Below are positions 1,038-54,940 of a DNA stretch of 64,000 nucleotides, in pieces. This DNA is from Planctomycetota bacterium (GTDB lineage: Bacteria > Planctomycetota > PLA2 > JAEUHO01). How positions within the stretch are numbered: the first letter of the stretch is position 1; each line of letters starts with the position of its first letter. The position numbers and the translations under genes are program-made. The stretch lies in contig CAXQZU010000022.1 of assembly GCA_964228555.1 (NCBI GenBank), positions 15,695 through 79,694 of the forward strand, written 5' to 3'. The notes under the pieces are model-generated. The model saw only the letters and a program-made list of their open reading frames with translations. It did no database searches and was not told the DNA's origin.

Positions 1038-2194
1038 CGGACGGCCTCCACGATCTTGCGGGCGGCGTCGGCCATGTCGCTGGCCGACGTGATCGCCAGT
1101 CCGCTCTCCTTGAGGATCTTGCGCCCCAGCTCCACGTTGGTGCCCTCGAGGCGCACCACGAGGGGATGCTTGAGGCCCACGGCGCGGGCGGCGTTGACGA
1201 CGCCCTGGGCGACCACGTCGCACTTCATGATGCCGCCGAAGATGTTCACGAGGATGCCCTTCACGGACGGGTCCTCGAGGATCAGGCGGAAGGCCGTGGT
1301 CACCTGCTGCTCGGTGGCACCGCCGCCCACGTCGAGGAAGTTGGCCGGCTCGCCGCCATGGAGCTTCACCACGTCCATGGTCGCCATGGCGAGGCCCGCG
1401 CCGTTGACGAGGCAGCCGATGTTGCCGTGCAGCTTCACGTACGAGAGGCCCGCCTCGCCCGCCTTGACCTCCGTGGGATCCTCCTCGGCCACGTCCCGCC
1501 ACGCGGCGAGGTCCTTGTGGCGGAACAGCGCGTTGTCGTCCAGCGTCACCTTGCCGTCCAGGCACACCACGCGGCCGTCGCCCGTGGTCACCAGCGGGTT
1601 GACCTCGACAAGGCTGGCGTCGCAATCCACGAACACCTTGGCCAGGCCGCGCAGCACCGTGGCCAGCGCCGGCACCAGCTCCTTCTCCACCCCCAGCGCG
1701 AAGGCCATGCGGCGCGCGCGGAAGGCCGACAGGCCCGTCACGGGATCCACCACCTCGCGCAGGATGGCCTTGGGCTTCTTGGCGGCCACCTCCTCGATGT
1801 CCATGCCGCCCTCGGCGCTGGCCATCAGGATGGGCGTCTCGCTGGCGCGATCCAGCAGCACCGCGGCGTAGAGCTGGCGCCTGAGGTCGAGCCCCTCCTC
1901 CACCAGCAGCCGGCGCACGGTGACGCCCTCGGGGCCGGTCTGCGGGGTCACCAGCGGGCGCGACAGGATCGCGGCGGCGGCGCTCTCCGCCTCCTGCGCG
2001 GAGCGCACCAGCTTGACGCCGCCGCCCTTGCCGCGACCGCCGGCGTGCACCTGCGCCTTGACCACCGCGAGGCGCCCGCCCAGGCGGGTGAAGCAGGCGG
2101 CCGCCTCCTTCGCGTGGGCGGCCAGCTCGCCGCGCGGCGTGCTCAGGCCGGCGCGCCGGAACAGTTCCTTGGCCTGGTGCTCGTGCAGCTTCAC
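1034..2194 (-). CDS. sucC: succinyl-CoA synthetase beta subunit (ATP-grasp)
   Basis: [12 protein letters not shown]...[18 protein letters not shown]...[11 protein letters not shown] are classic SucC motifs. GTG start with GGGAGG 7 nt upstream. Directly upstream of sucD and coupled to it. Confidence 0.95.
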
Positions 2195-2317
2195 GGCGTG
2201 CCTCCCGGGGAGAGCGCGGATGGTACCCCTGCCCGGGACGGCCGCCCGTCGCCGCGCGCGCGCCCCCGACGCAGGCCCCCGCCCTCGACCTCGCGCGGGG
2301 AGCGGGCCCGCCTGCCG

Positions 2318-4165
2318 CTAGCGAGGCAGGCCCTCGAGCCGCGCGCGCACCAACCCGGGCCAGGGCTGGGCATAGGCCGGCAGGCGCCCGGACTCCTCCA
2401 GCGGGGCCAGCAGGCGCAGAGCGCGGCGCAGCGAGCGCGCGCCCTCCTCGCGCTCGGCCTCCTGCGCAGCCTGCGCCTCGCCCAGGTGCATCCAGATGCA
2501 GGCCAGGTCGGCCTGCCAGAACGCGTTCTCGGGCGTCTTCTTCGCCAGGGGCTCGATCACGGCGAGCGCCGCGCGCCACGCCTCCAGCGCCTCGGCCCGG
2601 CGGCCCAGCACGAGCAGCGTGGCGGCCACCCGGTCGTGGCAGGTGGCCAGGTCACTGCCCGTCACCATGCGCAGGCGCCGCCCGCCCTGCGCCGGCGCCT
2701 CGGCCTCCGGCTCCAGGCCCTGCACGCGCTCGCGCGCCTGCTGGTAGGAGGCCAGGGCGCCCTCCGCATCCCCCTGCCGCGCCTGCAGGTCGCCGAGGTC
2801 CAGCAAGGCGTGCAGCCACTCCTGCTGCGGCTGCTCACGCGACGGGTCCAGCTCGCTCACGCGCTGCCAGGCCAGCGCGGCCTCCAGCCGGCCGCGCAGG
2901 GCGTCCTCCGGATCGCCACCCGCCTCCAGCGCCTCGGCCAGCCGGGTGCACACGCGCGCCAGCCGCTCCTGGCCGGCGCGTGCGAGCGGCTCGCGCGCCA
3001 CCACGTCCACCGCTGCGTCCAGCGCCTGCCGCAACGCGGCCATCGCCGCGGGCGCACGGCCCGCCACGAGGTCGTGGTCTCCGCGCGCCAGCAGCAGGTC
3101 GGCGCGCTGCGACATCGACTCGGTGCTGGGCGGGGCGCCGCCCGCGCCGGGATCCAGCAGCGTCAGCGCCTCGTCCCACGCGGCGAGCGCCTCGCCCGCC
3201 GAGCCGGTGGCGGCCAGCGACGCGGCCTGCACGCCCAGCGCGCGGGCCAGCACCTGCTGCACGCGCGCCTCGCCCGGCTCGCGCGCACGCACCGCCCGGG
3301 CACCCGCCACGGCCGCACGGGCCATCTCCAGCGCCGGCTGGGCACGGCCCAGCGACCCCAGCGTGCGCGCGATGCGCGCCTGCGTGTCGGCGGCCTCGCC
3401 CTGCCAGAGCAGGTCCGCGGGCTGCGCCTCGGCCAGCACCCGCACGACGCGCAGGGCCTCCTCGCGCTCGCCCAGCGCGCCCGCGAGGTCGGCGCCCCGC
3501 TCGAGGGCATCGGCCAGGGTCTCGTGCGCGCGCGCCACCGCCAGCACCCGCGCCGGCTGGGGCCGCACCTGCTGGCGCTGGCGGGCCAGCAAGAGCGCCG
3601 CGCGCAGCGTGTCGGCCGCCTCGGCCAGGCGCCCCTGCTCGGCCTGCACGTCGCCCAGCAGCGCCGTCGCGGCCCACTTCACCTCCAGGCTGGCGGGCGT
3701 GAGGGCCTCCACCTCGCGGCCCTCGTAGGGCTCCAGCGCGACCCGGGCCGCGCGCTCGACGATCTCCAGCCGGCCCAGCGGCGCCAGGCCTTCGCGCGAC
3801 TCCATGAGCAGCAGGGTGCTGGCCAGCTCCACGCTCTCGCGCAGCCCCTCGGCCACCTTGACGCGGGCGTCGGCCGACTGCTCGGTCACCTGCACCAGCT
3901 GCTGGAGCTGGTCCACCAGCTGCGCCTGCTTGGCCGCCAGCTGCTCCGCGAGGTCGAGCTGGCGGCGCACGCCGGCCGACTCCCCCTCGACCTGCGCGCG
4001 CTCGCGCGCGGCGCCTTGCGTGCGCCCGGCCACGAAGGCCACCGCCCCGGCCGCGAGCGCCAGCAGCACGGCACGCAGCCAGCCACGCCCTCCCGTCGGG
4101 CCCGGCGCGGCGGGAGCCGGCGGTACCGTGGGCGCAGCGCTCGAGGGCACGACGGGATCGGTCAC
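2318..4165 (-). CDS. membrane-anchored coiled-coil/TPR-like hypothetical protein
   Basis: 615-aa ORF with an N-terminal TM helix ([18 protein letters not shown]) followed by a long Ala/Leu/Glu/Arg-rich helical repeat region. GTG start. Composition is protein-like, unlike the overlapping frames. Confidence 0.6.
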
Positions 4166-15897: not shown

Positions 15898-18225
15898 CTA
15901 GTCCAGCAGGGCGCGCGCCGCGGCCTGCAGCTGGGCAGGGGCCAGCCGGTCCAGCTGGGCCAGCACCAGGCGCGTGCGGTCCACCTGCGGATACCGGCCT
16001 GCGTCTGCAGCCACGTGCGCCACGAGGCGCGCCAGCGCATCGCGGTAGCCCAGGCTGTGCGGGTCGGCATCGCGCTCCTCGGCCGGCAGCCGCTCGACCA
16101 TCTCCGCGAGCACGAGGTAGGGATGCGGCGAGGCCGCCAGCGCCCACAGCTGGGCGCGGCGCTCCAGCGCAGCCTCGAAGCGTGTCGCGGAGAGTCCCTC
16201 GCGCGCCAGCAGCCGCACCGTGGACGGCAGTCCCTGCCACAGGGGCAGGTGACGCCGCAGGTCCAGCACGTGCCCTTCCTCGTGCACGGCGAGGGTGGCG
16301 AGGCCTGCCCAGCGCTCGTGGGGCGAGGCCCGCTGGTGGGCTGCGAGCAGGCGCAGCCGCACCGCGCCCGGGTCGTCCAGCGCAGCAAGGCCTCGCGGAC
16401 CGTCGGCCGCCGGCAAGGGCATGGCGGACGCGGCCTCCACCAGCGAGGGATCCCGGCGCAAGGCGGCAAGGGCCTCGTGCTGGGCCTCCAGCGCGGCATC
16501 GGCGTCCAGCCACAACCCGTCAGGCAGGCAGGCGCCCGCCAGGCCGCCACCCTGCGCATCGACAAACGAGCGCAGGCCGCGGTCGTAGCCCAGCGCGAGG
16601 TCGTGCTGCAGGGCCTGTCCGCGCACGGTCACCGGTGCTGCGGGAACCAGCGCCGCCAGCGAGAACACGATGGCCTCCACGGGACCGTCGCTGCGCTGGC
16701 CCAGCACGAGGTAGCGCCCGTAGGCGCGGAAGTGCTGGACCAGCGGGGCTTCTGAGTGCACGCGGTGGTCCAGCCACGCGCCCACGAGTCCCACCTCCCG
16801 CAGGCCCGCACCCGGCACGGAGAGTCGCTGGGCTTCCTCGGGCACCAGGTGCTGGGCCGCCGCTGCGGCCATGCGCGCCAGCACGCGCGCCAGCGAGGCC
16901 CCCTGCGGGCGGCCCTGCGCGACCTGGTGGCCCGCACGGTAGCCCGTCTCCACTTCCTCGCGCAGCACCCGCTCGAAGGCCTGCTGGCCCTCCACGCGCC
17001 GGGCCAGCGCGCGCGCACCCGGTGTGTCCACGCAGGCCAGCACGTGCTGTGCGTCGGGGAGTGCCCCCACCGCGACCAGCGCCGCGGCCAGTGCCTCGAC
17101 CGCCGCGGGCGGCGCCTGCGGGCCGGGTGCCGCCTCCACCGCCCGTCGCAGATCCTGCCAGCGCGCGCGCAGCAGGCTGTCGCCCCGCTCGCGGGCGGCG
17201 GCCGGCGAGGCGGCCTCGATGGCCTCGACCACCTCGGTCCAGCGCCCCGCCTGCGCCAGCAGGTGGCGTCGCTCGCGCTCCAGCGGCACCGGCCTCGCAC
17301 CGGCGGCCAGGGCACGATCCAGCGCTGCCAGCGCACCCGCGCGGTCATCCTGCGCCAGCAGCAGCCGGGCACGCAGCGCCTCCGCCTCCGGGTTGCGGCG
17401 GTCCAGCACGGCCCCGATCGCGGCCCACTCCCCGGCGGGCACGACGGCGCCCTCCTCGCGCACGAGGTCGGCCAGCCGACGGGCCAGCGCCTCCGAGCGC
17501 GGCGCGAGCGCGAGCGCACGGCGCAGGGCATCGCGCGCCGGGAGCACGCGACCCAGCCTGCGCAGCACTTCCGCCTCCAAGGAGGGCCCGCGCGCGTCCT
17601 GCGGGTCCTCTCGCACCACCTCGGCCGCCAGCGCGAGGGCCTGCGGCAAGCGACCGAGGTGCACACAGGCGCGCGCCGAGAGCAGCCACGCCTCCACCCG
17701 CACGAAGGGGGAGGCTGCCCCGCCCAGCGCCCGAGCCTCGCCCAGCAGCTCGGCGTGCTCGCCCAGCCGTGCCAGCACGTGCAACAGCGCCAGCCTCAAC
17801 CACGGGCTGCGGTCGCGCCTCGAGGCCACGCGCAGCCGGTCCCGTTCCGTCGCGGCATCAGGCGCCAGCAAGGCTTCCAGGGCCGCCCGCAGCCCCCCCG
17901 AGGGCAGGGCCTGCAGGCGCGCCAGGACCTCGCCGCGGCCCCGCACCAGCGGGGCGACCTGCGTCCACAGCCAGGCCACCTCGGCGGGGCCCTGCGCAGG
18001 GTCCCCCTCGGCCTCGAGGCAGCGCACGGCCCCCCCCACATCGTGGGCCCGGAGCAGGGCCCGCGCCTCGGCTGCCTGCCGGACAGTCGGGCCCGCCCCG
18101 CGCACCGGCCCGGGGAGCGCGGGGGGCTCGGCACCGGCCACGGCGGCGGCACCCGCAAGGCCGGGCACACCCCCGCAGAGGGCCACCAGCAGCACGAGGA
18201 CGGCCTGGCAGGCGGATCGGACCAC
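15898..18225 (-). CDS. secreted TPR-repeat protein with a C-terminal HExxH zinc-metallopeptidase-like motif
   Basis: Signal peptide (VRSACQAVLVLLVALCGG), long Ala/Leu-rich TPR-like region, and an AVHEEGHVLDL (HExxH) motif near the C-terminus. GTG start. Confidence 0.7.
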   Translation of the reverse strand: MVRSACQAVLVLLVALCGGVPGLAGAAAVAGAEPPALPGPVRGAGPTVRQAAEARALLRAHDVGGAVRCLEAEGDPAQGPAEVAWLWTQVAPLVRGRGEVLARLQALPSGGLRAALEALLAPDAATERDRLRVASRRDRSPWLRLALLHVLARLGEHAELLGEARALGGAASPFVRVEAWLLSARACVHLGRLPQALALAAEVVREDPQDARGPSLEAEVLRRLGRVLPARDALRRALALAPRSEALARRLADLVREEGAVVPAGEWAAIGAVLDRRNPEAEALRARLLLAQDDRAGALAALDRALAAGARPVPLERERRHLLAQAGRWTEVVEAIEAASPAAARERGDSLLRARWQDLRRAVEAAPGPQAPPAAVEALAAALVAVGALPDAQHVLACVDTPGARALARRVEGQQAFERVLREEVETGYRAGHQVAQGRPQGASLARVLARMAAAAAQHLVPEEAQRLSVPGAGLREVGLVGAWLDHRVHSEAPLVQHFRAYGRYLVLGQRSDGPVEAIVFSLAALVPAAPVTVRGQALQHDLALGYDRGLRSFVDAQGGGLAGACLPDGLWLDADAALEAQHEALAALRRDPSLVEAASAMPLPAADGPRGLAALDDPGAVRLRLLAAHQRASPHERWAGLATLAVHEEGHVLDLRRHLPLWQGLPSTVRLLAREGLSATRFEAALERRAQLWALAASPHPYLVLAEMVERLPAEERDADPHSLGYRDALARLVAHVAADAGRYPQVDRTRLVLAQLDRLAPAQLQAAARALLD

Positions 18226-18291
18226 CAGGCCAGCCTACGGGGTGCGGCCCACCCGGACGGCACCCCCCCTCCCTGGGTCGCGCCCTCTTGC

Positions 18292-18306
18292 GTTCGCAAT
18301 CCGTTC
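18292..18306 (+). promoter_or_regulatory. GTTC-N7-GTTC direct repeat (alphaproteobacterial-type LexA/SOS box) overlapping a weak putative -35/-10
   Basis: The sequence is GTTCGCAATCCGTTCGG, 17 nt upstream of the small ORF at 18323 and about 420 nt upstream of lexA. A near-identical motif occurs at 54738-54752. Confidence 0.55.
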
Positions 18307-18322
18307 GGTTAGGTTGTTCGTC

Positions 18323-18466
18323 ATGAGCAACATCACCCTGACAAGCCTGTACTCCCGCACCGTGGTTCGCCACTCCCGAGACGAGCGTGCCCGCCTCCTG
18401 CCCCGGGGCGAGGCCGGCTTCCTGCTCCTGCTCGTGGCGGCGATGGCCCTGGCGCTGTTCGCCTAG
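18323..18466 (+). CDS. small (47 aa) hydrophobic protein, possible SOS-controlled membrane peptide
   Basis: MSNITLTSLYSRTVVRHSRDERARLLPRGEAGFLLLLVAAMALALFA has a C-terminal TM helix. It lies in a locally low-GC stretch immediately downstream of the LexA-box-like repeat, in the same orientation as lexA. Confidence 0.45.
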   Translation: MSNITLTSLYSRTVVRHSRDERARLLPRGEAGFLLLLVAAMALALFA

Positions 18467-18626
18467 GCCGCCCTTCGGGGCGGCCTCCCGAGCCCGCCGG
18501 CTGCCCGACGGCCAGCCCCGGGGGACGGGCTCCCCCCCGGCGAAGGCGCCGCCACGCGGCCAGCACGACAGCCCACGCCGCGCAAGGCCAACCGCGCAGC
18601 GTCCCTCCACCCCTGCTTCGCCCGCC

Positions 18627-18661
18627 CCATCCACCGTCTCCATCCACCCTCTCCATCCACC
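18627..18661 (+). repeat. three tandem copies of CCATCCACC separated by 4-5 nt
   Basis: The sequence is CCATCCACCgtctcCATCCACCctctCCATCCACC, in the lexA 5' region. Confidence 0.7.
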
Positions 18662-18729
18662 CCCGAACAAAGCCAAAAGGTAGGCGGCCGTTCGGCCGAT
18701 CCAGCCTCGTAGCCGCAGGAGCCCGCACC

Positions 18730-19335
18730 GTGAACTACACCCCCAAGCAGCTGCAGATCATGAACTTCCTGCGGGACTACCGCCGGACGCACGGCACCTC
18801 GCCCACGCTGGAGGAGATCGGCGAGCAGATGGGCGTGCACCGGGTGACGGTGCACCAGCATGTCACGTCGCTGGAGAAGAAGGGCGCCATCCGCAAGCTG
18901 CCGCAGCGCTCGCGGTCGATCGAGATCCTCGACCGGAACTACCTGCCCGAGGCCACCGTGCCGGTGCTGGGCCGCATCGCGGCCGGCCGGCCCATCGAGG
19001 CCATGGAAGACAGCGAGCACTACACGCTCGAGGAGCTGCTGCCGATCGCGCCGGGCCAGGACACCTACATCCTGCGCGTGGTGGGCCAGTCCATGATCGG
19101 CGACCACATCGCAGACGGCGACCTGGTGATGGTCGAGCGCACCCATCCCGGCCGCGAGGGCGAGATCGTGGTGGCCGTGGTGGACAACGAGGCCACCCTC
19201 AAGCGCATGTACCGCGAGCCGGACGGCAGCGTGCGCCTGCAGCCCAGCAACGCCACCATGAGCCCCATCTACGTGCGCCCGCCCCAGCAGCTGGACATCC
19301 GCGGCGTGGTGCGTGGCGTGCTGCGCCGCTACTAG
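18730..19335 (+). CDS. lexA: LexA repressor
   Basis: Winged-HTH N-terminus (LTPKQLQIMNFLRDY...GTSPTLEEIGEQMG) and S24 peptidase C-terminus with an Ala-Gly cleavage site region and Ser/Lys dyad (VVGQSMIGDHIADGDLVMV ... ATLKRMY). GTG start. Confidence 0.93.
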   Translation: MNYTPKQLQIMNFLRDYRRTHGTSPTLEEIGEQMGVHRVTVHQHVTSLEKKGAIRKLPQRSRSIEILDRNYLPEATVPVLGRIAAGRPIEAMEDSEHYTLEELLPIAPGQDTYILRVVGQSMIGDHIADGDLVMVERTHPGREGEIVVAVVDNEATLKRMYREPDGSVRLQPSNATMSPIYVRPPQQLDIRGVVRGVLRRY

Positions 19336-19356
19336 TCGCGCCGCCCGCCGGCTGCG

Positions 19357-20334
19357 CTAGCGCAGCACGGCCCTCTTGCGCAGCACCACGCGTGGCTGGG
19401 CTCCGGCCGGGGCGGACTGCACCATCAAGTCCACCGCCTCTCCGGCACGCCGCCCCCACAGGGCCCGTTCCACGTCAGCGGCCGAGGCCACGCGCTGGCC
19501 CGCCACCTCGAGCAGCACCTCGCCGGGCAGCACGCCCGCTGCGGCCGCGGGCCCGCCTGGGTCCACCGCGGCCACTTCCAGCAGGCCGGGCCGCTCGCGG
19601 ACGGAGAGGCCCAGCGAGGGACGGGCAGGCCCGGCCCCACCGCCCCGCAGTCGTCGCACTGCTTCCAGCACGGCCTCCACCGGCGTGGCCAGCGAGATGC
19701 CCTGGAAGCCGCCCGCACGGGTCATGATCTGGGTCACCATGCCCAGCACGCGTCCGTTCGTGTCCAGCAAGGGGCCGCCTGAGTTGCCGAGGTTGGCCGC
19801 TGCATCCGCCTGGATGAAGTCCTCGTAGGCGCTGGGCTGGGCCGCCACGCCGCGGCGGTGGAGGCCGCTGACGATGCCTGCCGACCACGAGCGCTCCAGG
19901 CCGTAGGGGCTGCCGCAGGCCAGCACCCACATGCCTGGCGCAAGGTCGCGCGTGCTGCCGGCGGCCAAGGGCACGAGGCCCGTGAGCGGGGCCTTGAGCA
20001 GGGCCACGTCCACGCGCGGATCGGTGGCGACCACCTCGGCCTCCACGGGTGCCCGGCCGGCCAGCCCCACCAGCACGCGCTTGGCCCCGGCCAGCACGTG
20101 GGCGCTGGAGACGATCCATCCGTCGCCCTCGAGCACCCACCCGCTGCCGACGGCGTCATCGCGGGAACGCCCCGCCACCTGCGTGCTCACGTGCACCACC
20201 GAGGCCTCGGCGGACACGATGGCCGCGCGGAAGTCGGCGGGCCCGGAGGCGCTCGCTGGCGCCGGATCGGCCCCGAGCCGGCCAAGGCACCAGCCCAGCG
20301 CGAGCACGAGGGGCAGGACGACGATGGGACGCAT
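19357..20334 (-). CDS. HtrA/DegS-like trypsin-family serine protease with one PDZ domain
   Basis: Signal peptide, then the catalytic triad context (SSAHVL ... D ... GNSGGPLLDTNGRVLGMV) and a C-terminal PDZ. ATG verified at 20334. Confidence 0.85.
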   Translation of the reverse strand: MRPIVVLPLVLALGWCLGRLGADPAPASASGPADFRAAIVSAEASVVHVSTQVAGRSRDDAVGSGWVLEGDGWIVSSAHVLAGAKRVLVGLAGRAPVEAEVVATDPRVDVALLKAPLTGLVPLAAGSTRDLAPGMWVLACGSPYGLERSWSAGIVSGLHRRGVAAQPSAYEDFIQADAAANLGNSGGPLLDTNGRVLGMVTQIMTRAGGFQGISLATPVEAVLEAVRRLRGGGAGPARPSLGLSVRERPGLLEVAAVDPGGPAAAAGVLPGEVLLEVAGQRVASAADVERALWGRRAGEAVDLMVQSAPAGAQPRVVLRKRAVLR

Positions 20335-20363
20335 GGCAGCCTCCAGCGCGGGGAGGCGGCATC

Positions 20364-21770
20364 CTACGGGCGAGCCACCTGGCCGGGACCCGGCCCGCGC
20401 TCGCCCCCGCCCACGCCGTACTCCTCCAGCTTGCGGTAGAGCGTGCGCAGGCCGATGCCCAGGATGCGCGCAGCGGCGGTCTTGTTGCCGCCCGTGCGCT
20501 GCATCGTGTCGAGGATGATCAGCCGCTCGGCCTCGGGCAGCGGAGTGCCCCGCTTGATGCGCAGCACGTCGGCCGTGTCGGGCAGGTCCTCCACCCGCTG
20601 CTGCCCGCCGACCTCGACGGGCAGCACGGCCCGCGTGACGAGGGGGCCGTCGCTGAGCACCACGGCGGCCTCCACCATGTTCTCCAGCTCCCGCACGTTG
20701 CCCGGCCACTCGTGCTGCTGCAGCAGGGCCAGCGCCTCGGGCTCGAAGCCGCGCACGTCGCGGCCGTGCCGCCCGGCATACAGCGCGCGGAAGTGCTCGG
20801 CCAGCGCCGGGATGTCGCCGCGGCGCTCGCGCAGCGCCGGCATGCGCACCGTCACCACCTTGAGCCGGAAGTAGAAGTCCTCGCGCAGCTCGCCCTTGCG
20901 CACCTTTGCGTCGAGGTCTGCATTCGTGGCGGCGACGAGGCGCACGTCCACCTGCCGAGGCTTGTTCTCGCCCAGGCGCTCCACCTCGCGGTTCTGCAGC
21001 ACGCGCAGCAGCTTCACCTGCGTGTGCAGCGGCACCTCGCCCACCTCGTCGAGGAACAGGGTGCCCCCGTGCGCAGCCTCGAAGCGCCCGGCGCGTTCCG
21101 CCGCAGCGCCCGTGAAGGCGCCCCTGGCGTGCCCGAACAGCTCGGCCTCCAGCAGGCCCTCGGGCAGCGCGGCGCAGTGGACCTTCACGAAGGGCCCGCG
21201 GGCCCTCGGGCTGGCCTTGTGCACGGCCTCGGCCACCAGTTCCTTGCCGGTGCCCGACTCGCCCAGGATCAGCACGGTGGCGTTGGTGGGCGCGGCCTTG
21301 CCCACCATGCGGAACACCTCCCGCAGGGCGGGGGCGCTGCCCACGAAGCCGGGGGGCAGCCCCTCGGCGCTCAGTCCCGCACGCCACGCGGCGCTCACCG
21401 GGGCCTGCTGGCGCGCAGCCAGCGCCGAGGCCACGAGGCTGCGCAGGCGGCGCACGTCGAGCGGCTTCTCCACGAAGTCGTAGGCGCCGTCGCGCATGGC
21501 GCGCACGGCGCGCTCGACGCTGCCGTAGGCAGTCATCACGATCACGGGCGCCTCGGGCTGCGCGGCCTTGGCGGCGCGCAGCAGGTCGAGGCCGTCACCC
21601 TCGCCGGGCAACACCACGTCCGTGAGCAGCAGGTCGAAGGGCGCCGCCGCGATGGCGGCACGGGCGCTGGCCATGTCCTCGGCCAGCCGCACCTCGTGCT
21701 CGCCGGAGAACACCTCGCCCAGCGCCTCGCGCGCGTTCTTCTCGTCCTCCACGACCAGCAGGCGCGCCAT
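20364..21770 (-). CDS. sigma-54-dependent response regulator (NtrC family: REC + AAA+ + HTH)
   Basis: Receiver domain (LLVVEDE...D at the phospho-acceptor site), AAA+ with Walker A GESGTGKE, and an intact GAFTGA ([31 protein letters not shown]). C-terminal Fis-type HTH. ATG verified at 21770. Confidence 0.9.
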
Positions 21771-21778
21771 GGCTCCTC

Positions 21779-22900
21779 CTAGGCCCGGGCCGGGCCGGTG
21801 TCGGTGCCGGCCAGCGGGAGGTGGATGACGAAGCGCGCGCCCCCGCCCGGCCGCTCGAGGACCTCGATCTCGCCCCCGTGGCTCTCGACGGCCCGGCGCG
21901 CGAGCGGGAGGCCCAAGCCTGTGCCCCCCCGCTTGCGGGTGAAGAACAGCTCGAACACGCGCTTGCGGTCGGCCGGCGCGATGCCGGGGCCGTTGTCGTC
22001 CACCACGATCACCGTGCTGTGCGGATCGTCGCGCGTCTCCACCTCGACACGCCCCGCGGGACCGACGGCCTCCAGCGCGTTGCGGACCACGTTGTGGACT
22101 GCGCGGTCGATGCGTGCGCGATCGACCGGCAGCCGCCGCACGCTGCCGGGCCGGAACACCACCTGCGCGCCCTGGCGCCGGGCGGTCCCGTCGAGGCGCT
22201 CGACCACCGCGGCCACGATGTCGTCCACCCGCTCGGGGGCGAGGTCGGGCGGGCCGCCACGGCTCACCTCCAGCAGGTGGGCCACCAGCGATTCCATGCG
22301 CTGGAGCTCGGCGATCATGGCGTCGGCCTTGGCCGCGATCGCCTCGCGCGGCAGGTCCTCGATGCGTTCCCGCAGCAGCTGCAGGTTGAGGCTGAGCGCG
22401 TTGATCGGGTTGCGGATCTCGTGCGCGATGCCCGCCCCCAGCGCCGCGACGGCCTCGCTGCGTGCCTGCAGGCGGCGACGCTCTTCCTCGCGCGCGCTGC
22501 GCGTGATGTCCTGCAGCGCCAGCACGGCGCCCAGCACCTGGCCGGACGGGCCGCGCATCGGCCCCAGCGTGGCCCGCACCACCCTCTCGCCCAGCGGGTG
22601 GCGCGGCAGGTCGCACCGCACGCCCTCGCGCAGGCAGGCATGCAGGGCCAGTCCCCAGTCGAGGTTGGGGTCGGCCGCCAGCGCCGGCAGCGCGTCCAGC
22701 AGCGAACGGCCCACGGCCGCCTCGCGCGGGCCCATCCACGCCGCGAGCGCAGGGTTCCACACCAGCACGCGGCCACTGGCGTCGGTGGCCGCCACGGCCA
22801 GCGGCAGCGCCTCGGCCAGCGCCTCCAGGCGCAGGGCGTAGTCCTCCTCGGGCAGGACGCGCAGCAGCACCTCGCTGTAGAAGCGGAACCGGGTGGTCAC
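21779..22900 (-). CDS. cytoplasmic PAS-domain sensor histidine kinase
   Basis: PAS-like N-terminus, H-box (IAHEIRNPINALSLNL) and HATPase_c N/G boxes (NVVRNALEAV ... DDNGPGI ... GGTGLGL). GTG start with AGGA 9 nt upstream, 8 nt from the regulator gene. Confidence 0.8.
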   Translation of the reverse strand: MTTRFRFYSEVLLRVLPEEDYALRLEALAEALPLAVAATDASGRVLVWNPALAAWMGPREAAVGRSLLDALPALAADPNLDWGLALHACLREGVRCDLPRHPLGERVVRATLGPMRGPSGQVLGAVLALQDITRSAREEERRRLQARSEAVAALGAGIAHEIRNPINALSLNLQLLRERIEDLPREAIAAKADAMIAELQRMESLVAHLLEVSRGGPPDLAPERVDDIVAAVVERLDGTARRQGAQVVFRPGSVRRLPVDRARIDRAVHNVVRNALEAVGPAGRVEVETRDDPHSTVIVVDDNGPGIAPADRKRVFELFFTRKRGGTGLGLPLARRAVESHGGEIEVLERPGGGARFVIHLPLAGTDTGPARA

Positions 22901-53799: not shown

Positions 53800-54675
53800 C
53801 TAGCGCATGCCCAGCGCCACCTGCACGGCCTGCAGGTCGTCCCACACGGGGCGCTTGGCCTCGGGATTGCGCAGCAGGTAGGCCGGGTGGAAGGTCGGCA
53901 TCACGCGCCAGCCCTCCGGCGTGCGCATCCAGCTGCCCCGCAGGCTGGTGATGCCCCGCTCCGTGCCCAGCAAGGCGCGCGTGGCGTGATTGCCCAGCGC
54001 GAGGATGGGCGGCGGCCCCAGCAAGGCCAGCTGCTCCTTCATCCAGGGCGTGCAGGCTGCCACCTCCTGGGGCATGGGCGGACGGTTGGCTGGCGGGCGG
54101 CACTTGAGGACGTTGAGGATGAACACGTCGTGGTCGCGCGAGAGCCCGATGGCGGACAGCATGCGCGTGAGCAGCTGGCCGGCCGGCCCCACGAAAGGCA
54201 CCCCCTGTGCGTCCTCTTCCTCCCCCGGCGCCTCGCCCACGACCACCAGGCGGGGGGTGCGGCTGCCCGCCCCGAACACGGCCTGGGTCCGCGAGGCGCA
54301 CAGGCCGCAGCGCTGGCACCCGGCCACCTCGGCCTCCAGCGGACCCCAACGGGCAGGGTCCGGCGGACCGGCGGGGACGGCCCCGGGCGACACGACGACG
54401 GGCCCGGGGAGGCCGCTCTCCGGACGCCGCCCCGTGGCAGGCAGCGCGGGCCCTAAGCCACGCGGGCCCGTTCGCGGGCCGCTGCCGCCCCCTTGCCCCG
54501 GCCCACGGGCCTGCTGCGTGGCACGGCCCTGTCCCATGGCGCCGTGGGCCCCCGGCGGCACGGCCACCGTCGGCTGCGGCTCCTCGGCCGGCAAGTAGCG
54601 GGCTCCGGCGCCCCGTACCCACTCGACGTAGAAGAGGGCCTCGTCGAGCAGCGGATCAGGTGCGCCCGGCATCAC
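53800..54675 (-). CDS. family-4 (Fe-S, UdgA-type) uracil-DNA glycosylase with a Gly/Pro-rich N-terminal extension
   Basis: GCQRCGLC ... GEAPGEEEDAQGVPFVGPAG ... ILNVLKCRPPANR ... HPAYLLRN motifs. The true start may lie downstream of 54675. Confidence 0.8.
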   Translation of the reverse strand: MMPGAPDPLLDEALFYVEWVRGAGARYLPAEEPQPTVAVPPGAHGAMGQGRATQQARGPGQGGGSGPRTGPRGLGPALPATGRRPESGLPGPVVVSPGAVPAGPPDPARWGPLEAEVAGCQRCGLCASRTQAVFGAGSRTPRLVVVGEAPGEEEDAQGVPFVGPAGQLLTRMLSAIGLSRDHDVFILNVLKCRPPANRPPMPQEVAACTPWMKEQLALLGPPPILALGNHATRALLGTERGITSLRGSWMRTPEGWRVMPTFHPAYLLRNPEAKRPVWDDLQAVQVALGMR

Positions 54676-54733: not shown

Positions 54734-54754
54734 ATGCGAACAAGATGCGAACAA
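54734..54754. promoter_or_regulatory. tandem ATGCGAACAA direct repeat containing GAAC-N7-GAAC (reverse complement GTTCGCATCTTGTTCGC); LexA-box-like, in the udg/secretin divergent region
   Basis: GCATGCGAACAAGATGCGAACAAATGG at 54732-54758, in a locally AT-richer intergenic stretch. Shares GTTCGCA-N4-GTTCG with the site at 18292-18306. About 60 nt upstream of the udg start on the minus strand. Confidence 0.5.
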
Positions 54755-54940
54755 ATGGCTGCGGGCCAGCAGCAAAAAGCCGGGATCGGGTGACGCGAGC
54801 GTGACACGCAGGCCGGACTCTTCCCTCGTCCAGGGTCCATGGGCAGGCCTGCATCGCGGCGCGCGCGCGCCGTCCCGACGCACGAGGGTTCGTCGGGGGC
54901 ATGCAGGCGTGCTCGTGTTCCCGCATGGAGCACACCGCGG

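Follow-up and report, generated by a model that had tools for sequence, protein, structure and literature searches.

A probable gene for a small tail-anchored membrane protein, with a candidate LexA operator, directly upstream of lexA in a Planctomycetota bacterium

What does a 47-codon open reading frame (ORF) directly upstream of lexA encode in a Planctomycetota bacterium (GenBank assembly GCA_964228555.1, contig CAXQZU010000022.1), and is it a gene at all? An earlier note, made from the DNA letters alone, had proposed that this small ORF specifies an SOS-induced small membrane protein. We followed up the proposal computationally in the whole 64-kb stretch of the contig (the window). The results indicate that the ORF is very probably a real gene and likely a target of LexA, and we slightly favour, as the best overall explanation, an SOS-regulated leaderless gene for a tail-anchored checkpoint effector. 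In what follows WIN is the locus of the window, L-numbers are related loci and P-numbers are related proteins. The features required first are these:

18323 to 18466, forward strand: small ORF, 47 codons plus TAG (ATG at 18323, stop at 18464-18466), predicted to encode a tail-anchored small membrane protein
18413 to 18463, forward strand: predicted C-terminal transmembrane (TM) helix, codons 31-47 (AGFLLLLVAAMALALFA), a purely apolar tail that reaches the C-terminus (AlphaFold2 helix 28-46)
18730 to 19335, forward strand: lexA, 201 amino acids (aa), with Pfam domains LexA_DNA_bind (PF01726) and Peptidase_S24 (PF00717)

The mechanical ORF list reports the small ORF (product MSNITLTSLYSRTVVRHSRDERARLLPRGEAGFLLLLVAAMALALFA, 47 aa) only as the end of a 480-aa frame, 17024 to 18466, just as the earlier note had said when it described a short frame hidden in the tail of a long junk one. 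The openness of the frame alone means little, given that at such GC content 47 open codons would occur by chance with P of about 0.5 (our estimate). The synonymous versus non-synonymous pattern, which the note had named as a refuting test, neither refuted nor confirmed coding: the ratio of non-synonymous to synonymous differences (pN/pS) in the conserved blocks was 0.5-1.3, for short blocks with extreme GC bias at the third codon position (GC3), so that residue-level purifying selection is not demonstrated by pN/pS. The flat ratio probably reflects the GC3 bias, which lowers pS, the shortness of the blocks and constraint at the level of composition; it is composition and short motifs that appear to be constrained, and the central block is kept at synonymous sites too. 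Because pN/pS is uninformative and open frames are common here, the coding status rests on codon-position GC, divergence, the apolar tail and homologues.

All four point the same way. GC at codon positions 1/2/3 is.69/.48/.92 in the small ORF and.70/.40/.98 in lexA, while the spacer downstream is flat at.80/.72/.74; within the small ORF, GC3 (43/47) differs from GC2 (23/47) with a Fisher p = 1e-5. The ORF also lies in a low-GC patch, as the note had observed (0.61-0.63 across 18250-18399 versus 0.75-0.87 on the flanks). For divergence we used a close relative, L051, one of three contigs that encode P0001, a protein 96% identical to the window protein, which comes from a Planctomycetia metagenome-assembled genome (MAG) and carries the NCBI label 'hypothetical protein'. 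A relative's assembly, GCA_046089665.1, has the locus on contig JBJSYI010000011.1. The small ORF differs from L051 by 2.8% (four changes, two synonymous and two non-synonymous), lexA by 3.3% and the upstream coding sequence (CDS) by 3.7%, while the spacer at 18467-18664 shows 11.4% mismatches plus 14 gap columns. Purely apolar 17-residue windows are rare in translations of the 64 kb (11 of 127,894), and only 2 of the 572 stop-to-stop frames of at least 40 aa end in such a tail, the small ORF being one of the two. That the ORF is merely a chance open frame in very GC-rich DNA gains from the frequency of such frames and from a pN/pS that is not clearly below 1. Codon-position GC, CDS-like divergence, the apolar-tail statistics, a frame retained in homologues of 46-195 aa and a conserved promoter make this explanation highly improbable, and on the same sequence-level evidence we regard 18323-18466, with high confidence, as a protein-coding gene. 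It is a clean example of how naive ORF lists can bury a small gene in a long spurious frame in very GC-rich DNA.

The predicted product has a simple build. AlphaFold2 places a helix at residues 28-46 (pLDDT 87-89), with a low-confidence N-terminal helix and a disordered middle; in the homologue P0007 the C-terminal helix spans residues 44-71. The helix of the window protein is a 17-residue Ala/Leu/Val segment with no internal charged or polar residues and nothing after it, and it is the single membrane-spanning segment, in agreement with the polar N-terminal half and lone C-terminal TM helix described in the note. The N-terminal part, which contains 6 Arg next to 1 His and 3 acidic residues, is rich in Arg. 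Because of this Arg-rich part, and because no residues follow the apolar helix, the window protein is predicted to be an N-in, tail-anchored inner-membrane protein with the Arg-rich part in the cytoplasm. Its size fits hydrophobic inner-membrane peptides of about 30-50 aa or less, its positional equivalents in L011 and L014 being 26 aa long. Family scans (Pfam at E up to 0.1, NCBIfam, PADLOC) of the window protein and four homologues gave no family match, and neither LysM nor any other Pfam domain was found in the window protein.

We then asked how widely the arrangement occurs. A LexA-based scan, taking one genome per species, returned nine Planctomycetota loci at 77-90% LexA identity and a number of more distant ones; the LexA groups that carry a candidate upstream ORF are those at 77-90% and at 47-50% identity. 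In eleven Planctomycetota loci a same-strand ORF with an apolar C-terminal helix stands upstream of lexA: eight are clear carriers with products of 46-195 aa (WIN, L001 and L004-L009) and three hold possible versions of 26-98 aa (L011, L014 and L017). The product lengths in L001 and L004-L009 are 46, 51, 99, 103, 151, 187 and 195 aa, which indicates that many insertions and deletions kept the reading frame. These ORFs share a related N-terminus (among them MSNITLT, MDITNAVIYEVLA and MEIDETALFRLF), and an apolar helix ends each at the stop. Conservation of the peptide upstream of lexA in relatives was a check that the earlier note had called for; the ORF, its promoter and its box are all conserved there.

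Protein searches added P0001, P0004, P0005, P0007 and P0010 to the family, in which three modules can be recognized: an N-terminal M-[DEQS]-I-T-[DN]-x-[VIL]-[ILM]-[FY]-x-[VL]-[LF], a central G-x-x-[RK]-R-P-F-P-[WRP]-x-G, and a C-terminal RE[AGS]LG followed by the helix. In the longer homologues the first two take the narrower forms M-[DE]-I-T-x-x-[VIL]-[ILM]-[FY]-x-V-L and RRPFP[WR]xG. The modules are joined by variable low-complexity linkers, often internally repetitive, and by insertion of such linkers between short conserved modules the family spans 26 to 195 aa. Only the helix and its juxtamembrane residues are common to all versions, the cytoplasmic part varying from 9 to about 175 residues. 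The window protein looks like a minimal form, its RARLLPRGEAGF resembling a remnant of the central and juxtamembrane motifs. Longer homologues (L006 2220-2807, L007 2254-2817 and L009 411-722) contain internal peptide repeats (PQANH, GQAKSR, ALPPRR and VTGPE, each twice), and an island encoding GSNRRPFP is almost identical between L006 and L007, synonymous sites included.

The family is small, with about ten members recovered in all. Word-indexed protein searches found one relative and then four; a profile run exhaustively against 1.84 billion representative proteins returned ten at E up to 0.001, of which six are members, namely four of the query's own sequences and two additions, P0007 and P0010. 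The other four (P0006, P0008, P0009 and P0011) were rejected as low-complexity noise, being long proteins matched over short stretches, P0006 visibly repetitive. When the fetched loci and the window were searched with a hidden Markov model (HMM), the window yielded no paralogue, L003, L010, L012 and the Gemmatimonadetes loci yielded no member, and the ORFs of L011, L014 and L017 did not reach significance. In L003, positions 2000-3000 hold low-complexity repeat frames (PFDPA, GPGRM), and a copy of a CAAAG...CCGAT element lies about 600 nt from lexA. In L134, positions 338-1146 carry P0007 and the lexA-proximal element described below, then an unrelated lower-GC minus-strand gene in place of lexA, which could reflect either a genuine rearrangement or the chimeric assembly of a metagenome contig.

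How would such a gene be expressed? The region just upstream of the ATG contains three candidate signals:

18288 to 18293, forward strand: -35-like hexamer TTGCGT, 16 nt before the -10; TTGCGT, TGGCGT or similar in WIN, L001, L005-L009, L134 and L135
18310 to 18315, forward strand: -10-like hexamer TAGGTT, 7 nt before the ATG; all ten close loci have TAGNNT 6-7 nt ahead of the start codon
18292 to 18307, forward strand: direct repeat GTTCGCAATCCGTTCG, candidate LexA operator, overlapping the -35 hexamer and filling the -35/-10 spacer

The ten close loci share cTTGCGTTCGC-N5-CGTT[AC]GGTTAGnnTnnnnnn(n)-ATG, that is, TTGCGT, a 16-nt spacer, TAGNNT, 6-7 nt and the ATG. The match to the sigma-70 consensus is weak (3/6 for TTGCGT against TTGACA, 6/12 for both hexamers), and a consensus promoter/terminator scan found no promoter at the locus; the assignment therefore rests on conservation and on the spacing between -10 and start seen genome-wide. 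In the window, TANNNT precedes coding-like ORF starts seven times at a spacing of 6 and twice at 7, and at most once at any other spacing from 2 to 15. Besides the small ORF, the starts with TANNNT (mostly TAGNNT) followed by 6 or 7 nt are 23010 (+), 54675 (-), 28434 (-), 18225 (-), 15868 (-), 9583 (-), 4165 (-) and 22900 (-), with GTG starts frequent among them. Five of the nine agree with the called genes of a close relative in both start and product length (775, 1576, 373, 240 and 254 aa). Leaderless genes thus appear to be common in this genome. The small ORF begins TAGGTT-GTTCGTC-ATG, with no purine-rich Shine-Dalgarno sequence, and its mRNA is probably leaderless too, since its spacing fits the pattern of the eight other genes. 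The note's suggestion that the ORF starts without a leader is thereby supported, and what the note stated as fact about the sequence proved correct throughout.

The direct repeat consists of two GTTC half-sites 7 nt apart (core GTTC-N7-GTTC at 18292-18306, GTTCGCAATCCGTTC), and, as the note had stated, the ATG begins 17 nt past its last base. The 64 kb contain two copies of GTTCNNNNNNNGTTM, where 0.37 would be expected; the extended form GTTCGC-N5-GTTCG has two exact copies and no one-mismatch copy, against 0.00 expected (100 shuffles). Orthologous small-ORF promoters retain it as GTTCGC-N5-GTT[CA]G. The same type of repeat is found at the promoter upstream of the small ORF and lexA in ten loci, and directly upstream of lexA in L010, L013, L015, L016 and L018, which lack the small ORF. 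In L010 it reads GTTCGTTGTCCGTTCG and lies 33 nt before the lexA start; in the four Gemmatimonadetes loci it forms phased tandems, CTTC-N7-GTTC-N7-GTTA and then CTTC-N7-GTTC, before lexA:

L013, positions 2915-2950: Gemmatimonadetes tandem repeats before lexA
L015, positions 2734-2775: the same
L016, positions 2893-2934: the same
L018, positions 2894-2930: the same

In these five loci every match to [GC]TT[CT]G-N6-GTT[CA] is confined to the 110 nt or so that precede lexA, the rest of the fetched sequence having none, which suggests that a LexA box of the GTTC-N7-GTTC type may operate in Gemmatimonadetes as well. As a sanity check, the myxobacterial loci L033 and L034 show CTCTACACGCCTGTTCAGGG upstream of lexA, which resembles the Myxococcus LexA box. 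Palindromic operators (TGTTC-N8-CAACA across the start codon; GTTAGG...CCTAAC) were considered and rejected, being not conserved in the close group.

In Alphaproteobacteria, GTTC-N7-GTTC has been published as the LexA motif (PMC4951493, PMC8565304). The planctomycete repeat has the same core and spacing and likewise stands in the promoter of the lexA unit, the Gemmatimonadetes tandems being phased at 11 bp; it differs in its host, a planctomycete, in a degenerate 5' half and in a 3' half that frequently reads GTTA(GG), and its binding by LexA is a prediction. An equivalent LexA box exists in Acidobacteria. According to a 2016 paper, no SOS response had been documented in the PVC superphylum (PMC4951493). 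In the literature searched from 2017 on we found no paper on the SOS response, LexA or DNA damage in Planctomycetota, and the literature searched documents no LexA motif for this phylum. The locus offers a testable LexA operator for this phylum, of the alphaproteobacterial box type.

The second copy of the box in the window lies near a DNA repair gene:

54737 to 54752, reverse strand: second exact box copy GTTCGCATCTTGTTCG, an 11-bp tandem TTGTTCGCAT(C/G) x2, 62 nt upstream of the start codon of the uracil-DNA glycosylase (UDG) gene
53800 to 54675, reverse strand: family-4 UDG gene (Pfam PF03167, 1.4e-36; NCBIfam TIGR00758, 187.9 bits), with a TAGCCT-N6-GTG start

It sits in the divergent intergenic region between the UDG gene (-) and a secretin/TPR gene that begins at 54839 (+), and the UDG gene is a possible second member of the regulon. 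The box is, however, placed well upstream of the leaderless -10 that belongs to the UDG gene itself, and L137 shows a different distance between them. In the five orthologous regions counted (L137-L141; L136 ends at a contig edge and P0024 came without DNA, so both were left out), it is kept only in the closest, L137 (GTTCGCATGGTGTTTG); L138 and L141 have GTTC-N7-GT[AG]C, an altered form, on the opposite strand, and L139 and L140 lack the box. A metagenome scan with the UDG protein gave 80 loci at 42-60% identity, with no relevant boxes. Being displaced from the -10 and poorly conserved, the UDG box is modest independent evidence. The repair genes recA, uvrA and imuAB lie outside the window.

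These data bear on whether a real gene could be free of LexA control, the repeat being a promoter element or another regulator's site and the lexA adjacency inherited synteny. The repeat overlaps the -35 and the spacer, so promoter function alone could conserve it, and the second copy is not positioned to repress the UDG promoter. Nevertheless, the repeat type recurs upstream of lexA in L010 and the Gemmatimonadetes loci, where neither this promoter nor the ORF is present, and nowhere else there; the second window copy lacks a promoter of the same layout; and the motif equals the published LexA motif class (PMC4951493). Freedom from LexA is therefore unlikely in our judgement, and LexA control of the small ORF is the probable arrangement, as judged from motif, position and conservation.

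The repressor itself is canonical: the protein is a TIGR00498 equivalog in NCBIfam (169.8 bits versus a cut-off of 110.95) and aligns over its full length with solved LexA structures, including the Ala-Gly cleavage site (RIAAGRP) and the GxSM motif (GQSM). The small ORF ends 263 nt before it on the same strand, and this adjacency holds in WIN, L001, L004-L009, L011, L014 and L017. The intervening DNA contains the following:

18465 to 18486, forward strand: hairpin with a 9-bp G+C-rich stem and a UUCG loop, beginning inside the stop codon, with no U tract
18467 to 18664, no strand: fast-evolving non-coding spacer, 198 nt
18665 to 18700, forward strand: conserved lexA-proximal element GAACAAAGCCAAAAGG-N9-GTTCGGCCGAT, which on the other strand reads as a degenerate box CTTT-N7-GTTC
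18717 to 18721, forward strand: lexA Shine-Dalgarno sequence AGGAG, 8 nt before the GTG, which makes lexA leadered, unlike the small ORF

The hairpin is kept in L051 despite three substitutions in its loop and upper stem, and L006 has a 4-bp hairpin; it is possibly a partial terminator or a 3' stabiliser. As a conserved terminator it was rejected, because it is lacking in the more distant loci and the scanner did not call it. The scanner's one terminator-like match was on the minus strand, 18698-18685, within the lexA-proximal element. In the close group the ORF-lexA spacer is 150-370 nt long and evolves fast. At 18627-18665 it contains a 13-nt tandem repeat in three copies (CCATCCACC[GC][TC]CT), L051 and L052 each carrying one copy fewer. 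Tandem repeats of unrelated sequence stand at this place in L001, L006, L009 and L135 as well, so that repeats have expanded in the spacer more than once.

The last 65 nt before lexA (18665-18729) are 100% identical to L051, and the element within them is kept as (G/T)AACAAnnnGCAAAGG-N13-GaCCGAT in L001, L004-L009, L134 and L135 (on the other strand CTTT(G/T)-N6-GTTCG). It may be the lexA promoter, a second LexA site or an RNA signal; assignments as a sigma-70 promoter, a sigma-54 promoter or a conserved RNA hairpin gained no support, since no consistent -10, -24/-12 or stem was found. A like element in L011, L014 and L017 looks like part of a single promoter/operator region, ...TAACAAG-N5-AAAG-N12-GTTC-xxCCGAT-GTTAGGGTAAAAC, downstream of which come a Shine-Dalgarno-led ORF of 26-98 aa, whose product ends in an apolar tail, and, after it, lexA, at a distance of 12-16 nt in L014 and L017. 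Because these distant loci have a single promoter/operator, the peptide ORF and lexA in tight order, the comparison suggests an ancestral peptide-lexA operon, from which the close group would have kept the intact promoter and box before the small ORF and a decayed copy before lexA. The small ORF either opens the lexA transcription unit or forms a unit of its own just before it: the hairpin in the stop codon and the fast-evolving, repeat-bearing spacer point to separate units, whereas the identity with L051 at 18665-18729, the conserved element and the arrangement in L011, L014 and L017 point to a shared unit or origin.

The same features raise the question of whether the product matters at all. 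The small ORF might be an upstream ORF (uORF) or leader peptide whose translation tunes lexA, either through the hairpin at the stop codon (attenuation or 3'-end formation) or by translational coupling. Its place right before lexA, with both read in one direction at every locus, the strong hairpin in WIN and L051, the stop codon 12-16 nt from the lexA start in L014 and L017 and a pN/pS near 1 would all fit. Yet the apolar tail is kept in every lineage despite sequence turnover, and the conservation of the N-terminal and RRPFP motifs suggests that the product has a function; the hairpin is confined to the closest relatives, and in the close group the ORF and lexA are 150-370 nt apart, with fast-evolving spacer between them. 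We consider a leader peptide quite improbable.

The wider neighbourhood is conserved as well. In L001-L009 and in the window (15898-22900) the order is a TPR protein (-), the small ORF, lexA, an HtrA-type Trypsin/PDZ protease (-), a sigma-54 response regulator (-) and a histidine kinase (-). With a PDZ protease next to lexA, the locus is reminiscent of YneA and SosA, which are degraded by proteases of the PDZ kind, but the gene order could simply be inherited. A membrane-tethered modulator of the SOS circuit, made together with lexA, binding LexA, RecA or a protease and shaping induction or recovery, would account for a lexA linkage that persists across two divergent LexA groups, for the short conserved cytoplasmic motifs and for this neighbourhood with its PDZ protease. 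However, the shortest family members have no cytoplasmic motifs, conserved synteny may reflect mere relatedness, and we know of no precedent for such a modulator; like the leader peptide, it is given little weight here.

We return to the favoured explanation, in which the product is an effector released by DNA damage. Transcription would start from the promoter made of TTGCGT, 16 nt and TAGGTT, with the -10 only 7 nt before the ATG, and yield a leaderless mRNA. LexA would bind the GTTC-N7-GTTC repeat over the -35 and spacer and repress the small ORF until DNA damage brings about RecA-stimulated self-cleavage of LexA and releases it. The product would place its Arg-rich N-terminal part in the cytoplasm and its Ala/Leu/Val helix across the inner membrane, where the helix may bind a membrane partner and delay division or envelope growth, as SidA, YneA, SosA, ChiZ and DivS do. 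The role of a damage-induced division or growth checkpoint effector, taken by itself and drawn by analogy, is a tentative assignment to which we give somewhat less than even chances. We prefer it because of the lexA linkage, the leaderless and simply regulated mRNA, the lack of polar helix residues, the conserved cytoplasmic motifs and the cost that basal co-expression would impose on a pore former. The most specific version, a lineage-restricted leaderless tail-anchored checkpoint effector of a Planctomycetota clade, under a previously undescribed GTTC-N7-GTTC SOS box and acting on FtsZ-independent machinery of division or envelope growth, is more doubtful still.

Several observations count against this explanation. 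In addition to the flat pN/pS, the weak promoter match with its negative consensus scan and the displaced, poorly conserved UDG box, L003 has a LexA 80% identical to that of the window but holds no member of the family in the 3 kb upstream, and the 26-aa peptides of L011 and L014 reached only E 0.3-3 in the HMM search. The predicted topology is the reverse of that of YneA, SosA and ChiZ, and an extracytoplasmic domain is missing. Since FtsZ-independent division is reported for Planctomycetota (PMC12283558), the usual division targets may not exist.

What is new is the family, with its topology and its placement relative to lexA, and the phylum in which it occurs, whereas an SOS-induced small membrane protein beside lexA is a known theme, which limits the impact. 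The locus nonetheless adds an unclassified small-protein family and, in a phylum for which FtsZ-independent division is reported, a candidate for a membrane effector that DNA damage induces; if the checkpoint role is true, the effector's binding partner would be a direct handle on the division and envelope machinery of these bacteria. The carriers of the small ORF are uncultured MAG lineages, so that tests would have to be heterologous.

Among known systems, the earlier note had likened the layout to TisB, an SOS-induced type I toxin of E. coli (PMC11575346). A toxin of the TisB/DinQ kind would insert in the inner membrane, dissipate the proton-motive force and bring on dormancy; the small ORF shares with these peptides its small size, its hydrophobicity and a candidate LexA box, and its shortest positional equivalents (26 aa, nearly all one helix) fall in their size class. 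Membership in that group found no support: there was no match to a toxin family (0 in Pfam at E up to 0.1, 0 in NCBIfam, 0 in PADLOC), and no known antitoxin RNA family in 17500-19500 (Rfam, E up to 1), a search that a novel RNA would escape. TisB and DinQ are translationally locked by a structured 5' untranslated region (UTR), while the small ORF, judged from the sequence, is leaderless, its -10 leaving no room for a long structured 5' UTR. Its helix has no internal charged or polar residues to line a pore, its homologues have long cytoplasmic regions with conserved short motifs, and it is linked to lexA, so tightly in L014 and L017 (12-16 nt) that basal co-expression is implied, which would be costly for a pore former. 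A TisB-like toxin is thus less likely than a checkpoint effector, and an improbable identity for the window protein.

The coupling of an effector to the repressor gene is in itself viable: in the lexA-sulA operon of Pseudomonas a division inhibitor is co-transcribed with lexA. SulA is a soluble FtsZ binder of 160-170 aa encoded downstream of lexA, and is unrelated to the window protein in sequence and topology. Another parallel is offered by YneA, SosA, ChiZ and DivS, Gram-positive SOS division inhibitors encoded beside lexA (PMC6851548, PMC6051672), a shared adjacency that was used to predict SosA (PMC6851548). The window protein resembles them as a small single-pass membrane protein beside lexA with a candidate LexA site and poor conservation between lineages. 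Their genes are divergent from lexA, whereas the small ORF is co-directional; they have an N-terminal membrane segment and an extracellular C-terminal domain (often LysM) that CtpA-type proteases target, whereas the small-ORF helix lies at the extreme C-terminus with nothing exposed outside and no LysM. Because of the opposite topology and the missing extracytoplasmic domain, the window protein stands outside this class; it may work like these inhibitors and is not one of them.

There is also a likeness in build to SidA of Caulobacter crescentus, a 29-aa SOS-induced inner-membrane division inhibitor that acts on FtsW (PMC4211646). Both are very small hydrophobic inner-membrane proteins with a GTTC-N7-GTTC operator (a candidate one here), and the helix is the conserved core, with equivalents as short as 26 aa in L011 and L014. 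Unlike SidA, the small ORF lies directly upstream of lexA, is predicted to be leaderless, adds a polar cytoplasmic N-terminal part with lineage-specific motifs, and belongs to a phylum for which division without FtsZ is reported (PMC12283558).

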